DNA of 64,000 nt. Origin: Chiloscyllium plagiosum. Taxonomy: Eukaryota. Under the pieces are notes generated by a model that was given only the letters and a program-made list of their open reading frames with translations, was not told where the DNA came from and ran no database searches. The DNA is taken from the NCBI RefSeq assembly GCF_004010195.1, contig NC_057749.1:14055078-14119077 (forward strand), written 5' to 3'. A program made the translations under genes and the position numbers. This document shows positions 8,364 through 64,000 of the stretch, piece after piece. The stretch's first letter is position 1. Each line of letters starts with the position of its first letter.

Positions 8364-11300
8364 GTAAGTAGCAGAGATTGGAATCTGTATTTGTCATATA
8401 CATTTACTTTTACCTTTTTTATGGGATTCTTCTAATGATATCCATTTGCTCAGATGTAAGTATCACCTTGAACCAGGAATGGTTATTTTTATTTATCCCG
8501 TGTATCTCACATCCAGTTACTATGAGCTGCAGGGCTTGGTTACCCTGATCACATACATGAAACTGCACCGATGATCTTGCTGAAACACTCAAAATTCTAG
8601 AGTAGATACGGAATATTGCCCCGGATGGGAGATCCAGAACCAGGAGACACAGTCTCTGAATCATGTGTTGACATGAGGCAGAATTTCTTCACTCAGAGGG
8701 TGGTAAATATTTTTGGGATTCTCTCTCCCCAGAGGACTGTGGAAGCTCAATCATTGGCCGAGTCTAAGGCAGATCAAAAGATCTCTGTCTATGTATTAAA
8801 TATATCAAAGGGGTATGGGAATAGTGTGAAAACGTTACATTGAGGTAAGAGATCAACCATGATCTCGTTGAATTGTGGAGCAGGTTTGAGGGGCTATATG
8901 GCCTCCTCCTGCCCCTGTGTTCACCAATGGAATCTTTATGACTTGAGCCCTTGTGTGGATATCTGAATGTGCAACCTTCTGACCAAGAGCAACTGAGGAA
9001 GCCAAGGGCACCACGATGCATTCTTAATCCTTACACACCAGAAGCTCTTGAGTCTTGGAGGATTTGTATTATCAATTTGCACTTATTTTGCTTGTCTCAG
9101 CTAATGTTGGCTTCCTTATCTTTACATGACATAAATCACCAAGTTCAGCTTGGGGTGGGTTATAGGTGTCATCAGAACTTTTGAGACTAAAATAAGAACA
9201 TTTTCAGGAACTGTGCAAAGTTATTAAATCTAAGAGATTCATCTGTTTTTCCCTTTGTCTCAAACACCCCTTTGCCAATTCATTCGCACCCCACTCCCCA
9301 AAAATGAAACTCATGCTAAAAAGACAATAATTTTGAATCCTTTTCTTGGTTTTATTGGACCTTCACCACAAGGAATCCAACGTTGTTTTAAAAAAACAAG
9401 CTTCGACACTCTGAATATTTACTTTTTAAATCCCTGATGGAAAATAATGTTTTCCCACTTTTGGGAGAAAGTGAGGACTTCAGATGTTAGAGATTGGAGT
9501 TGGGAGTGTGGTGCTGGAAAAGCACAGCAGGTCAGGTAGCATCCGAGGAGCAGGAGAGTCAGTGTTTTGGGCATAAGCCCTTCATCAGGGATGAGGCTAG
9601 TGGGGCTGGGGTAAGGCAATTGGGAATATGTTAGGTAAATGGAGGTAGGGGCGAAGGAAACGGTGCCACCCTCTCAACCTGTCCATCACCTTTCCCATCT
9701 ATCCTCTCCACCCTCCTCTCCGATTCATCACCTTTTCCCCCACATTCATCTACCTACTGCATTCCCAGCTACCTTTTTGAACCCCCCCCCTTAAGCCCCA
9801 CCCCTCTCCCATTTATCTCTCAGCCCTCTGACCACAAGCCTCATTACTGATGAAGGGCTTATGCCTGAAACGTTGATTCTCTTGTTCCTCAGATGCTGCC
9901 TGACCTGCTGTGCTTTTCCCACTTTTGTCTAATATTGCTTTCCTGGCCCTCATTGAAAATTAGGAATTAAAATCTCCTTGGTGTCAAAAAGATTCCCCAT
10001 AATCGAACCAGGTCAGCCCTCCAGCACAGGCCTAATGGGCTGAATCACAGAATCCCTACAGTGCGGAAGCAGGCCATTCACCCCATCAAGTCCACACTGA
10101 CACACACCGAGCATCCCTAGAGCCACCCCATTGCCATATCCCTGTAACTTTGCATTTCCTATGAATAATCCATCCAGCCTGTACATCCCTGGACACTATG
10201 GGCAATTTCCCATGGCCAATCCACTATAACCTGCACACCTTTGGACTGTGCAAGGAAATCTGAGCACCTAGAGGAAACCCACGCAGACACTGGGAGAGCA
10301 TACAAACTCCACACCGTCACCTGACGGTGGAATCGAACCACGGTCCCTGCTGTTGTGAGGCAGCAGTGCTGACCACTGAGCCAATGTATCACCCCATTAA
10401 GCTGCAGTGACTTTGCTGGCAGTGTGGTAGAACCAGGTATGTACATATAGCCTCAAGACATTCTGATTTCCCCAGTGAAATCTGATTGGGATTTTGTTTA
10501 CCAAACTGGGTGGCACGGTGACTCAGTGGTTAAAACTGCTGCCTCACAGCGCCAGAGACCCAGGTTCATTTCCAGCCTCTGGTGACTGTCTGTCTGTGTA
10601 GAGTTTGCACAAACATTCTCCAAGTGCCTGCGTGGGTTTCCTCTGGGTGCTCTGGTTTCCTCCCACAGCCTAAAACTGTGCAGCTAAGGGTGGATTGGCT
10701 ATGCTAACTTGCCCCATAGAGTCCAGGGATGTGTAGATTAGGTGCATTAGTCAAGGAAAATGTAGAGTAATAGGGTAGTGTAATGGGTCTGGGTGAGATA
10801 GTTCCCGGAGGGTTGGTGTGGACTTGTTGGGCCGCAAGGCCTATTTCCACACTGTAGGAACTCTAATTTTCCTAATTCTACCCCCAAATACCATTTGTCT
10901 TTTAATGGACCGGTGCATTAAGTAGCAAATCAGCTGGAGCAAGAAGGTACCACTTTGCTGTGAGCGGCTTTTCACGTGTGCTTGAGTTTACTGGGCAGCG
11001 GTGAGGGTGACACCCGAGGGCAGTGTGACTATTTGTGTGAGCAACTGGTCAAGGTCAAACCACAACACGGTTCAGTCATGGGTGCTTCCATTCAGTGTGA
11101 CTCAGATGGACACTCTAGCACTAAATTCAAACATCTCCCCCTGTAATCCCCAACAATATCAGAAGAAACTGTCCATTAGGAGTGTATTTGAGGAGTAAGG
11201 TGATCTACCAATTCTTTAATTTTTGTTGATTGCATAGAGTAGACAGAGTGCATATTTTGTTTCAGAATTGGAAAACATTGGAAATCTACACATTCAGCTG

Positions 11301-60580: not shown

Positions 60581-63220
60581 TACACACATGATAGGCAAAC
60601 ATCATTGATTCACTCTGTCCTCTGCCCCCCATAGCAATAAAACAAGTTAACAGTTCTGATGTTTGTACATTCTCACGGGCTGACAAATTAAGTCCATTAG
60701 GAATACTATGCTTACAATAAAACTTGAAGCCTGCCCTGCAGTAAAACAATAGATGCCTCGTACAAAGAGCAGTTTTGTAGATCAGGTAACATCAAAGCAG
60801 CTCAGAGTCTATTGAAAGTTCTTACCGTGACACCAAACACAAAAGCGTTGTGAACAATGGCACAAGCTGTAATTCCTGATTGTTACTTCTGTCTCTTTTT
60901 CTCCCATGACCGTGAAGCTGAGCTATGTTGTATTGCACCAGTCAAGCGCTCAAACTACAGTGGTGCGAGCAACTTCTGCTTTAGTTCTCTACTGTAGGTT
61001 TGGGCAGACCTGCAGCACCACTACCGTGGAGTACAGCAAGGATGCAGGCCCTGAATTCAAGCCAGCCAGAAAAGGGATTGAACCCAGTGGTGTTGGCACC
61101 GGTCAGCCAAGCTCAGCAGAACCTCTTCCCACCTGCCTCTGGTCATCCAGGCTGCAGTTATTATGGTATCATATGGTTCTATTGTTGTGCTGTGGTCCAG
61201 AGTTAGGGACAGTGATGGCCAAGTCCATGCATGCCTGACCAGGAATGCACCCAACTCTTACACCTGCCATTGGTGTATTAGAAGGACTTGAAGATTGATA
61301 ACATTGCCAGGCAGGTTGATGACTGCACCAGAAGACCTCCAGCAGTTTAGTGACAGATTATTTGAGTACAAATTGCAGGCAGCAGAGCACAACCAACTTG
61401 TGTGATGCCCTTTTGCACAAATGTCAAATACGAACAAGGGCATTTTTTCTTAGAATCCCTACAGTGCAGACAGAAGTTGTTTAGCCAGTCTGCACTGACT
61501 CAGAGGCACATCCCATCCAAACCCAACCTTCTACCCTACCCTACCCTATCCCTGTAACCCTGCATTTCCCATGGCCAATCCACCTAGCCTGCACATTCCT
61601 TAGACACGATGGACAACTTCGCATGATCAATTCATCTAACCTGCACATCTTTGGACTGTGGGAGGAAACCGAAGCACCTGATGGAAACCTATAGACACTG
61701 GGAGAAATGTGCAAACTCCACAGATGGCCACTCAAGGTTGGAAGCAAATCTGTGTTGCCCCCGACTGTGCCATCATCCTGCTCCTTTCCTCCACACCCAC
61801 CCCCCACCACCACCTCACCTATCACCAGTCATTTTTCCCCTAATCCCCCTCTCCTCACCATTCCACCATTACTCGAGGACCCACATTGAAGCTCCTGTAC
61901 TGTTTATCCTACGGAGCTCAATTAACTCAGTATAGGATGGCCACTTAACCGTAAAGTTCCCTGGCCGCTACACAACTGTTCCTCAAGCTGGCTCTACATT
62001 TGCTTAAAAATTCAGGTAGTGGTTAGGATTGTAAATAATGGCAGCCTCAAAATCTATGATAAAGGTTAAGGTGATGGGGGTGTGGGGGGCTAATATTTGA
62101 TTAAACACTGTGGAAAGAGAGAATTTTTGCCACAATCCTTAAATACCTGCAAGATTGGACAACTGAATATTTATCTTGTTTTAGGCTTAAACAGCATCAG
62201 CTATACTAAACACTATTCATTGTTAAGAACTATGGTTGATAAATAATAGAGAGTCATTTGTGGCATGACAGTTCCTGGAAATTCAGTTAGACCATGCCAA
62301 CGCCTTGTATGTAAATATCAGGAATACCAGAGCTAAGTAGAACACTCTCCCTGTTGTCTGGTCGAGACAGGCACTAGCTGGAGATAAAATTAAAGACTAT
62401 ACTTATGTAATACCCTTTACCATCTTGGAATATTCCAAAGTGCTTTACAGCCAATGAAATACTTTACACATTTATATTTGGTTACAAGATGTGAAAATCA
62501 AATGGCTTCAAACTACTTTGTAGTTCCAAGCTCCTCTTGCAGGTTTAAAATTTACTTGTAATTAGTTTAGAGATTTACCATTTTTGTTTTGACTGTTTTC
62601 TCAATATCTTTGGCTGAACATCTATAAATGCGCCTTGAGACTACCCCAAAGCTCTTTACTAAACAGAGTACAGTATGAAGCAAAAATTATTTGTAGCACA
62701 GGACGCATGACAGCTAAATGTGTCTCCACTCAAGGCAAAAAGGGCATTAAGTGACTAGTTGGATCCTTTGATGGCTAGGCATTCTAGATAACTCCCCTGT
62801 TCTTTGAATCATGCCACAGGACAGTTTTATTGGTTTTTGTCGCATCCAAAAAGGCACTTTGCAAAGAGTGGAATTCCCCAGGTTGTATCAGCTTAGATTT
62901 CGTACCCATGTTTCTGGGTTGAACTTCAGACTGTGCACTACCAATAGGTTTAATATTCTAGATAGTTCACAGTCCCTGGTTAACTACCTTCTGCATGAAC
63001 CCGATGCATGCTATATTGTCTACCATGAATGCAGTGCTCTTTTCACTGCAAATATAGGTAACAGGCACAAAATGGGTTTGTAAGAAGATAGGGGTGTTGT
63101 TGTAATGTCACTGGATTACTAATCCAGAGGCCCAGGCTAATGGTCTGGAACTACTACTTCTAGTCCTACTATAGCAACTGGTTCATTTGATTAAAACGGG
63201 AATTGAAAACTAGCAATTGT

Positions 63221-63563
63221 TGTGGCTCTGTTCGCCGAACTGGAAGTTTTTGTTGCAAACGTTTCGTCCCCTGTCTAGGTGACATCCTCAGTGCTTGGGA
63301 GCCTCCTGTGAAGCGCTTCTGTGGTGTTTCCTCCGGCATTTATAGTGGCCTGTCCCTGCCGCTTCCAGTTGACAACCGGAAGCGGCAGGGACAGGCCACT
63401 ATAAATGCCGGAGGAAACACCACAGAAGCGCTTCACAGGAGGCTCCCAAGCACTGAGGATGTCACCTAGACAGGGGACGAAACGTTTGCAACAAAAACTT
63501 CCAGCTCGGCGAACAGAACCACAGCAACGAGCCCCCGAGCTACAAATCTTCTCACAAACTTTG
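63221..63563. mobile_element. Young fold-back Penelope-like insertion, family D
   Basis: 151-bp arms (63221-63371 / 63373-63523, ~3 mismatches), 40-nt tail, exact 13-bp TSD aactagcaattgt (63208-20, 63564-76). Confidence 0.93.
63450..63489 (+). ncRNA. Minimal type I hammerhead ribozyme motif (family D); mirror copy on the minus strand at 63255-63294
   Basis: GCA-CTGAGGA-T-GTCACCT-AGAC-AGGGGAC-GAAA-CG-TT-TGC: stem I GCA/TGC, stem II 6 of 7 bp, palindromic ACGT stem III. Confidence 0.82.
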
Positions 63564-64000
63564 AACTAGCAATTGTAACTACAAAACCCATCATTGATTA
63601 TCCAAAAAAAAAAAAAATCAGATTCACTAATGGAAGGAATTTGTCAATCTTACCTGGCCCTTCCATGTGACTGCACACACAGCAATGTGGTTGACTCAAC
63701 TGCTGTCTGAAATGGCCTGTCAAAATAATTCAGTTCTAGCACAATTAGGGATTGGTGACAGCTATCCCTTCAAAAGAATTTTCAAGTTGTCCAAGTTATA
63801 ATCACCCCCACAAGTTTTCTCTTTTAGTTTCAGAAAGGATTGATTCTTGCATATCATACAAATAACACTAACAAATGATGAGATAGTTTTATAGTGATAT
63901 TTGTTGAAGATGATCACATTCAAGTGATTGTGAACAATTTAATTGTTATACTTCCCATTCACAAGGGGTCGAAGAACTGTACTAAAATATCCCAAGATCA

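Follow-up and report, generated by a model that had tools for sequence, protein, structure and literature searches.

The general scheme of inverted pseudo-long terminal repeat (pLTR) insertions by Penelope-like elements (PLEs) was reportedly set out by Evgen'ev and Arkhipova in 2005. For rotifer Penelopes, the parts of the account by Arkhipova et al. that treat insertion structure describe an inverted pLTR, a one-sided tail of 31 bp, a target site duplication (TSD) of 9-10 bp, inclusion of the first codons of the open reading frame (ORF) in the pLTR, and TATA motifs facing both ways, with palindromes at the junctions read as products of self-priming (PMC3846280); the corresponding part of Craig et al. 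2021 follows the same general inverted-pLTR scheme (PMC8557442). The Poseidon-type PLE of Anolis carolinensis, PAc (Frangieh et al. 2024), has an ORF that begins at hammerhead stem II and a hammerhead that cuts 26 bp after the start codon, only with protein present; in vitro, its reverse transcription initiates at two adjacent internal sites, 111-118 nt into the ORF, at an A/C-rich stem-loop, the tail spans the interval between these two sites, and cleavage and extension take place on both target strands (PMC11167929). The PLEs of metazoans also carry minimal hammerhead ribozymes (min-HHRs), for which the relevant sections of Cervera and de la Pena (2014) list an extra nucleotide after position 9, pairing of G10.1 with C11.1, a helix II that is long and a helix I that is short, the lack of loop 3, and a palindromic 15.2/16.2 implying action as dimers, and mention cases in which two motifs lie on opposite strands at a distance of 100-700 bp (PMC4209133). 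Here, we describe a palindromic locus at positions 63208-63576 of a 64,000-nt stretch of the Chiloscyllium plagiosum genome (assembly GCF_004010195.1, contig NC_057749.1, positions 14,055,078 to 14,119,077; referred to as the window). The combination of inverted pLTR, tail and TSD, palindromes at junctions, and TATA motifs in both directions is already in print, and the window locus is a further instance of it.

Architecture of the insertion

We consider it likely (with a probability of about 0.8) that the locus is a single, extremely 5'-truncated and head-to-head folded insertion of an abundant PLE with a C-terminal GIY-YIG endonuclease (EN), which could be called a solo inverted pLTR pair. 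Its parts, in order, are:

63208-63220: left copy of the TSD, an exact 13-nt direct repeat (AACTAGCAATTGT), the last four nucleotides of which (TTGT) also pair with the right arm
63221-63371, minus strand: short inverted arm, without a tail, its outer end at the putative inner start region of reverse transcription (RT)
63372: centre base A, a single nucleotide in the middle of the element's TGACA
63373-63527, plus strand: long direct arm, in the sense orientation of the arm unit
63528-63565, plus strand: unpaired tail of 38 nt, on the long arm only, the final 2 nt overlapping the TSD
63564-63576: right copy of the TSD, the same exact 13-nt direct repeat (AACTAGCAATTGT)

A repeat search of the window returns the inverted arms as 63217-63371 and 63373-63527, each 155 nt, 97% complementary and separated by a 1-nt gap, with four mismatched pairs (63367/63377, 63239/63505, 63226/63518, and 63220/63524). 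With the TSD-overlapping nucleotides 63217-63220 excluded, the arms are 151 nt with three mismatches. A sequence-only reading of this DNA had described a 303-bp palindrome with a 1-nt centre at 63372, flanked by an exact 13-bp TSD and bearing an unpaired tail of 40 nt, and we recover all of these, the tail measuring 38 nt. The centre motif TGACA is 5 nt long and self-complementary about its middle base, and the tail, judging from the ends of genomic copies, corresponds to the interval that separates the inner RT start region from the outer one. The same reading had taken the locus for a retrotransposed PLE derivative; the min-HHRs, the inverted partial pLTR, the one-sided tail, and the TSD agree with that assignment.

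Palindromes are a known assembly hazard, and one contig from DNA run X15, at the depth of the unique left flank (12.8), connects 63223 to 63508 and omits 284 nt of the palindrome. However, a spurious palindrome arising from chimeric reads is highly improbable: the arms differ at four positions, the TSDs are intact, and 31 further sites on many chromosomes have the same architecture, each with flanks and a TSD of its own. The 63223-63508 joint could reflect a deletion allele, instability of the palindrome, or a graph artefact. The empty-site joint (63220 to 63577) is not among the listed joints of this run. Just upstream of the insertion, positions 63070-63163 are a high-copy repeat with a summed contig depth of 290-320 in run X15, versus 12.8 in the unique flank.

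Coding content and minimal hammerheads of the arms

The sequence-only reading had presented the arms as a promoter module free of ORFs. This holds in that neither arm contains a complete ORF, but the module itself is not what we find: the arms are built of ORF fragments, the 3' end of one ORF overlapping the 5' end of the next. The coding features and the TATA motifs, which are present on both strands as that reading had indicated, are:

63371-63469, plus strand: predicted 3' end of a reverse transcriptase-endonuclease (RT-EN) ORF, 32 codons (DNRKRQ...STEDVT) with the stop TAG at 63467-63469, in hammerhead helix II/loop 2
63459-63563, plus strand: predicted start of a PLE ORF, with ATG at 63459-63461 and then 35 codons (MSPRQGTKRLQQ...), protein MSPRQGTKRLQ...
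63400-63405, plus strand, with its mirror at 63339-63344, minus strand: TATAAA, within the ORF (codons T-I-N) and 54 nt 5' of the ATG, a candidate pLTR promoter by analogy

Read on the minus strand, the short arm consists of the last 32 RT-EN codons, a min-HHR, and about 23 codons of the next ORF; the long arm holds the first 35 codons of that ORF. Because the end of one ORF overlaps the start of the other, the pLTR of this family is almost wholly coding. The ATG at 63459 is kept in 110 of 112 aligned arms and TATAAA in 93, whereas an upstream in-frame ATG at 63405 is present in only 58.

The host genome searched comprises 3.56 Gb in 101,977 contigs. A search with the element gave 80 matches from 40 scored of 1,692 candidates, many of them near-full-length, and a single copy (L032) had one arm only. 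The parent was reached by walking out from this copy, in which an open frame (...YIGQTGRQL...HEH...) runs from upstream of the centre, through it, and on to a TAG inside helix II. The translation of 63371-63469 is the same 32-residue C-terminus and stop as in the L032 frame, where it is contiguous with the GIY-YIG region, and over 149 columns the window long arm does not differ from the unit directly downstream of the EN ORF in L032. RT-EN fragments of the family match Pfam RVT_1 (E = 7.7e-8) and have 47% identity over 397 residues to an 832-aa PLE protein (P0012), and the ORF from ATG 63459 has 43% identity to residues 2-41 of the same protein (E = 7e-4). We therefore conclude, from sequence comparison, that each arm is the ORF-end/ORF-start junction of a canonical EN-bearing PLE, since its C-terminus is continuous with the EN frame of L032 and its downstream ORF matches the N-terminus of P0012. 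The EN motif VVYKIPCKDC...HYIGQTGR is visible in the family ORFs, and the family EN aligns (E = 3e-22) to residues 620-795 of another protein (P0119), spanning its Pfam GIY-YIG stretch at 711-767. A direct Pfam scan of the family EN fragments gave no GIY-YIG domain match, and a whole-genome search with Pfam GIY-YIG gave one marginal match and did not lead to the parent. A 30-nt junction sequence that is continuous through the ORF occurs at 8,945 + 8,963 = 17,908 genome sites at <=2 mismatches. The autonomous parent with RT and GIY-YIG domains, which the sequence-only reading had proposed to search for, does exist.

Nearly all of the named long RT-EN relatives (P0001-P0120) are tapeworm or fluke proteins (Spirometra, Sparganum, Opisthorchis, and Dicrocoelium; 40-51% identity), a bias that may only reflect which genomes call such ORFs genes; two further proteins are nearer to the family RT-EN, at 54-55% identity. 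Among sequencing runs X1-X14, which carry four organism labels, 20-40% of sampled 31-mers from a 1-kb PLE stretch are present, and near-identical copies of the family may thus occur under more than one species label; X1 bears the label organism A, as does DNA run X15. Three long head-to-head PLE pairs (L049-L051, on G000:C1) have middles that are runs of N of about 400 to 1,900 nt, which may be assembly gaps at inverted repeats.

A putative min-HHR lies in each arm, with the following elements:

63438-63502, plus strand: putative minimal PLE-type hammerhead, predicted cut after U 63486
63242-63306, minus strand: putative mirror hammerhead, predicted cut after 63258
63453-63486, plus strand, and 63258-63291, minus strand: 34-nt core from CTGAGGA to GAAACGTT, without mismatch; none expected in 100 shuffles
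63450-63452 with 63487-63489, plus strand: helix I (GCA/UGC)
63438-63442 with 63498-63502, plus strand: possible outer helix
63453-63459, plus strand: CUGAGGA box, with an extra U at 63460
63461-63467 with 63472-63478, plus strand: helix II, seven positions with one A-G mismatch, loop AGAC
63479-63482, plus strand: GAAA box, followed by CG at 63483-63484, U16.1 at 63485, and U17 at 63486

The core noted on both strands by the sequence-only reading is present on each without change. The motif has the traits of min-HHRs: there is an additional nucleotide between 9 and 10.1, G10.1 is matched by C11.1, helix II is long, 15.2/16.2 (CG) is palindromic, and loop 3 is lacking. Across the copies it is well kept: CUGANGA is intact in 106 of 112 arms (N7 being G in 58, U in 46, and C in 2), with change at the level of subfamilies limited to G, U, or C at N7; almost every arm has U or C at position 17, octamers with an intact GAAA ending in T or C in 106 of 112; and 95.2% of helix II cells in the copy alignment are paired. 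A cofold of two copies is 5.9 kcal/mol better than two monomers, through pairing of AAACGUUU. Hammerhead, stop codon, start codon, and a conserved N-terminal peptide share nucleotides: A9, the extra U, and G10.1 are the ATG of the next ORF, and TKRLQ is encoded by ACG AAA CGU UUG CAA.

Over the window as a whole, no Rfam model of any kind matched at its gathering score; with permissive filters, models other than hammerheads do match the palindrome. In the region 63150-63650, we rejected 18 matches at E <= 10 to microRNA (miRNA), small nucleolar RNA, and other hairpin models as artefacts of a long hairpin; several miRNA models reach E < 1e-5 and are false positives of the same kind, as is a SNORD17 match at 63287-63465 on the minus strand (45.5 bits against a gathering score of 45), attributable to the hairpin of ~155 bp.

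Recurrence of the fold-back point

Whether the fold-back point recurs was a question raised by the sequence-only reading, and the exact palindromic centre is found at 32 genome sites at <=2 mismatches. With the window element as query, 43 loci were fetched, and exactly this centre is present in 32. Alignment of 21 copies shows a separate flanking repeat for every one and a fixed 3' end (...CAAACTTTGA(A)). Flanking repeats of about 10-16 bp are present in 31 of the 32 same-centre copies, in an estimate that tolerates one mismatch and may take in 1-3 nt of microhomology at the ends. Among the 32 copies, long arms stop at unit position 190-193 in 30 and short arms at 150-158 in 25; in the remaining seven the short arm is shortened (to unit 43-129), with TSDs still present. 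Relative to the ORF, short-arm outer ends fall 64-72 nt and long-arm ends 104-107 nt in. Variable TSDs, a fixed 3' end, and one-sided shortening together indicate, at the level of sequence, that insertion is by retrotransposition rather than by cut-and-paste. Arm-to-arm identity ranges from 85.5 to 99.0% in this class; at 97.4%, the window copy lies in its middle to upper part and is not especially recent, so that the description 'very recent' in the sequence-only reading was too strong.

These copies also bear on the suggestion that the locus is a miniature inverted-repeat transposable element (MITE) or another relic of a DNA transposon with terminal inverted repeats. Although long inverted arms within a direct repeat would suit such an element, TSD length is variable, the 38-nt unpaired tail is at one end and shortening affects one side, there is a 1-nt centre with no internal region, and the arms are PLE coding sequence with a retroelement as parent. 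A MITE without a PLE parent, an outcome the sequence-only reading had allowed for, is hardly credible.

Read in the sense of the long arm, 20 of the 32 copies have an A at the centre and the other 12 have a T. Two pairs among the 32 (L033/L054 and L055/L056) are later duplications of one insertion each. In the first of these, L033 (C101068) and L054 (C8:46183900-46184900) hold the same shortened fold-back insertion and TSD within a duplicated segment (96.6% identity across 931 nt), and yet the centre base is A in one and T in the other, which fits either inversion of the 1-nt spacer or a plain transversion after insertion. Since the base can change after insertion, it is weak as evidence on mechanism, and we dropped the idea that an A or T centre marks which complementary DNA (cDNA) switched template.

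Fold-backs with other centres were found among the first 100 junction matches, which gave 11 head-to-head pairs 230-2,380 bp apart and one same-strand pair. In all 12 of these loci, which were fetched, there are two inverted units, one arm reaching unit 178-193 and the other stopping at 128-155; the centre differs from locus to locus, and four of the 12 are near-perfect palindromes. Altogether, none of 44 fold-backs has two tails and 43 have one tail (35-43 nt), the remaining one (L053) having none. Because the 12 loci with other centres all show the same asymmetry, the one-sided tail is a property of the insertion reaction and not inherited from a founder.

A maximum-likelihood tree of 112 arms over 149 columns, which is weakly resolved and includes only 31 arms from 18 ordinary loci in a non-random sample, gives 26 changes of label for the arms of the 43 query-found loci, versus a mean of 26.8 when labels are shuffled. 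For some arms of palindromic copies, an identical arm exists in an ordinary PLE copy, with different subfamilies represented, and the window long arm is identical on the tree to that of L032. With palindromic arms interspersed among ordinary ones or identical to them, the sequences indicate that the same fold-back point has been generated repeatedly, from different parent subfamilies, rather than inherited from one founder.

A non-autonomous palindromic element that propagates itself, such as a fold-back short interspersed element (SINE) or a retrozyme relative, would account for some of these observations; here, a 348-nt unit would be copied by PLE machinery, with 5' truncation eating into the left arm. 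At least 32 sites have exactly the same centre, 7 of 32 have shortened left arms with TSDs as 5' truncation of a unit-length template would give, and a preprint argues for an origin of animal non-LTR retrozymes from PLE pLTRs (10.64898/2026.07.22.740005). Nonetheless, we find this explanation unlikely. First, the palindromic copies are not a clade; every subfamily has such copies, some of them indistinguishable in sequence from ordinary PLE units. Second, the long/short asymmetry is seen in 12 of 12 fold-backs with other, unique centres, and many other centres exist. Third, the unit could not be excised, because hammerheads on opposite strands give one ribozyme per transcript, and there is no internal promoter able to start a transcript at the left edge. 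A specific version, in which a parasitic fold-back SINE makes a one-arm transcript that is reverse transcribed, copy-back restoring the second, TATA-bearing arm, is very unlikely. If true, the palindrome would regenerate its own promoter in each cycle, and read-through of such units would yield hairpin RNA against a parent family of 18,000 copies.

Inverted PLE junctions extend beyond these classes. Inverted anchors 0-30 nt apart occur at 54 sites; among the 50 listed, 15 have a 1-nt centre, 4 are perfect or near-perfect palindromes on the element's CAGCTG, 10 nt upstream, and 6 come from tandem arrays on two scaffolds, the others being scattered. Centres inside the unit number 336; among the 50 of these listed, 9 are palindromes on the element's 10-nt palindrome GAAGCGCTTC, and 10 have one 100-nt asymmetric inverted junction at a GAAGCG repeat. 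About 8 of these 10 are near-identical and of one subfamily (listed from G000:C1:67869417-67869516 to G000:C4:39963615-39963714), and 16 of the first 100 rows are 8 sites counted on two strands; this junction marks either a strong hot spot of microhomology or a small lineage that is copied whole. A 46-nt inverted PLE junction occurs five times at a period of 2,367 bp (G000:C99910:14480-23993) and once on C96538; on C99910, tandem amplification of a fold-back PLE unit seems to have taken place.

Expression, mechanism, and relation to known systems

Two RNA runs, X19 and X20, were added by species label; X19 comes from a poly(A) single-cell library, was sampled to about 2%, and cannot show 5' ends. 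All 128 matching reads of X19 lie on the element, and 92% extend into sequence that differs from the window, indicating that they come from other PLE copies. Twenty-seven reads cross the centre from EN-coding sequence, and most are in ORF sense. Depth is zero on the unique flanks (62600-63210), there is no position at which many molecules begin or end in the reads sampled from this poly(A) library, and no read of X20 matched. There is no sign of expression or function at the window locus in these data, which are thin. A transcription start site at the palindrome centre had been considered from TATA-like motifs ~26-33 nt upstream in palindrome and parent, and was dropped, with 27 reads crossing the centre and no pile-up of starts.

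These reads are relevant to whether the locus could be an exapted or active module, either a TATA promoter that fires both ways and yields self-cleaving RNAs or a source of hairpin RNA for silencing of PLEs by small RNAs. TATAAA is widely kept among the arms at its position before the ATG, the published account of rotifer PLEs considers both-way TATA motifs and small RNAs derived from Penelope copies (PMC3846280), and sense-strand reads of the family do exist in X19. Set against this, the unique flanks carry no reads, nearly all reads leave the window sequence, the centre is crossed from EN-coding sequence rather than used as a start, read starts and ends do not pile up (a weak point, given the small sample of one poly(A) single-cell run), and the arms decay like other copies. 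An active module is distinctly improbable. Promoter activity of TATAAA, for which a role is suggested by analogy with the rotifer elements as described in that part of the account (PMC3846280), is possible but unsupported, as are extrusion of a cruciform and a hairpin RNA from read-through.

If, as we consider likely, the locus is a folded, 5'-truncated PLE insertion, a plausible course of events is as follows. Target-primed reverse transcription would begin at the outer start site and copy the junction region. The end of the nascent cDNA would then pair at the self-complementary TGACA, either with itself or with a second cDNA from the other target strand, and be extended back to the inner start region, the product being sealed into a 13-bp staggered cut; the centre base, A or T, would be the unpaired middle of the motif. 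Such a copy would be dead on arrival, as it has no complete ORF and its minimal hammerheads would need a second copy and probably an element protein to cut, and the locus has most likely only decayed since insertion. The arm ends match both RT initiation sites and the tail that in vitro work established for PAc. An A/C-rich stem-loop at 63503-63542 on the plus strand, with a 7-bp stem (AGCUCGG/CCGAGCU) and a 26-nt loop that includes the short-arm end point, may be likened to the AC-rich stem loop of PAc (PMC11167929); it folds no better than shuffles (z = -0.32).

Several points weigh against this interpretation. No full-length intact parent is among the copies read, five 10-kb loci being 5'-truncated and the longest being head-to-head pairs with runs of N. 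In the covariance-model search advocated by the sequence-only reading, Rfam hammerhead models gave no match at the gathering score in the whole window, or even at E <= 10 in 63150-63650; these models require helix III, which is absent from min-HHRs. Helices I and II in 86 distinct copies show one double change, as in shuffles, although with a mean identity of 93% among copies the test is without power, and we consider it uninformative rather than refuting. The putative ribozyme is called from motif architecture and published relatives, not from a statistical test. The step that makes the fold-back could be self-priming or involve two cDNAs, and both fit part of the evidence: the seven shortened short arms fit copy-back of one cDNA better, and the both-strand cutting in vitro fits two. 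The T centre in 12 of 32 copies is contrary to the A that would always be expected if the long arm were always first. Finally, the enrichment of self-complementary motifs at fold-back centres is judged from the listed subsets (50 of 54 and 50 of 336), with no genome-wide null.

The locus is itself of little weight, being one decayed by-product of a family with ~18,000 junction copies. The family, however, is a good natural data set for the unsettled mechanism of PLE integration. Its regularities (the one-sided tail, the arm ends, and the self-complementary junctions) agree with the idea of self-priming drawn from a few rotifer copies, extend it to a large, vertebrate-sized genome, and could guide biochemical tests.

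Comparison with described systems places the locus among EN-bearing PLE insertions. Animal non-LTR retrozymes have tandem direct hammerheads on one strand and give circular RNAs; the window locus is like them in being PLE-derived, non-coding as a unit, and of similar size, but its hammerheads are on opposite strands and there is no tandem copy in the window. Twin priming of LINE-1 joins different parts of the RNA, producing an inversion with a deletion. The resemblance lies in the use of both target strands or of template switching, and in an inverted 5' part within one TSD-flanked insertion; in the window, however, both arms are the same sequence, and a palindrome results. Like the min-HHRs of PLEs in the relevant sections of their description, the window motif has CUGANGA and GAAA, the extra U, a seven-position helix II, and CG at 15.2/16.2, and it differs from those described there in the A-G mismatch of helix II and in doubling as stop, start, and N-terminal codons (PMC4209133). 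Inverted-pLTR insertions of EN-bearing PLEs such as Pen2a_Av of Adineta vaga share with the locus an inverted 5' pLTR abutting a direct copy, a 30-40-bp tail at one end, a short TSD, first ORF codons within the pLTR, TATA motifs facing both ways, and palindromes at the inverted junction, in the portions of the two accounts that deal with them (PMC3846280, PMC8557442). Relative to the Pen2a_Av type as given in those portions, the window insertion has no ORF body between the pLTRs, is a near-perfect palindrome with a 1-nt centre, and belongs to a family with an almost wholly coding pLTR. The comparison with PAc, made through its published description, is between different hosts and families, and the start sites in the window family are deduced from the ends of genomic copies; moreover, the second arm is never tailed in the window family (0 of 44), whereas no strand difference was seen in vitro for PAc. 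Nonetheless, as in PAc, the window ORF starts at hammerhead helix II with a predicted cut 25 nt after the ATG, RT would start ~105-118 nt into the ORF in an A/C-rich region, and the tail would lie between two start sites.

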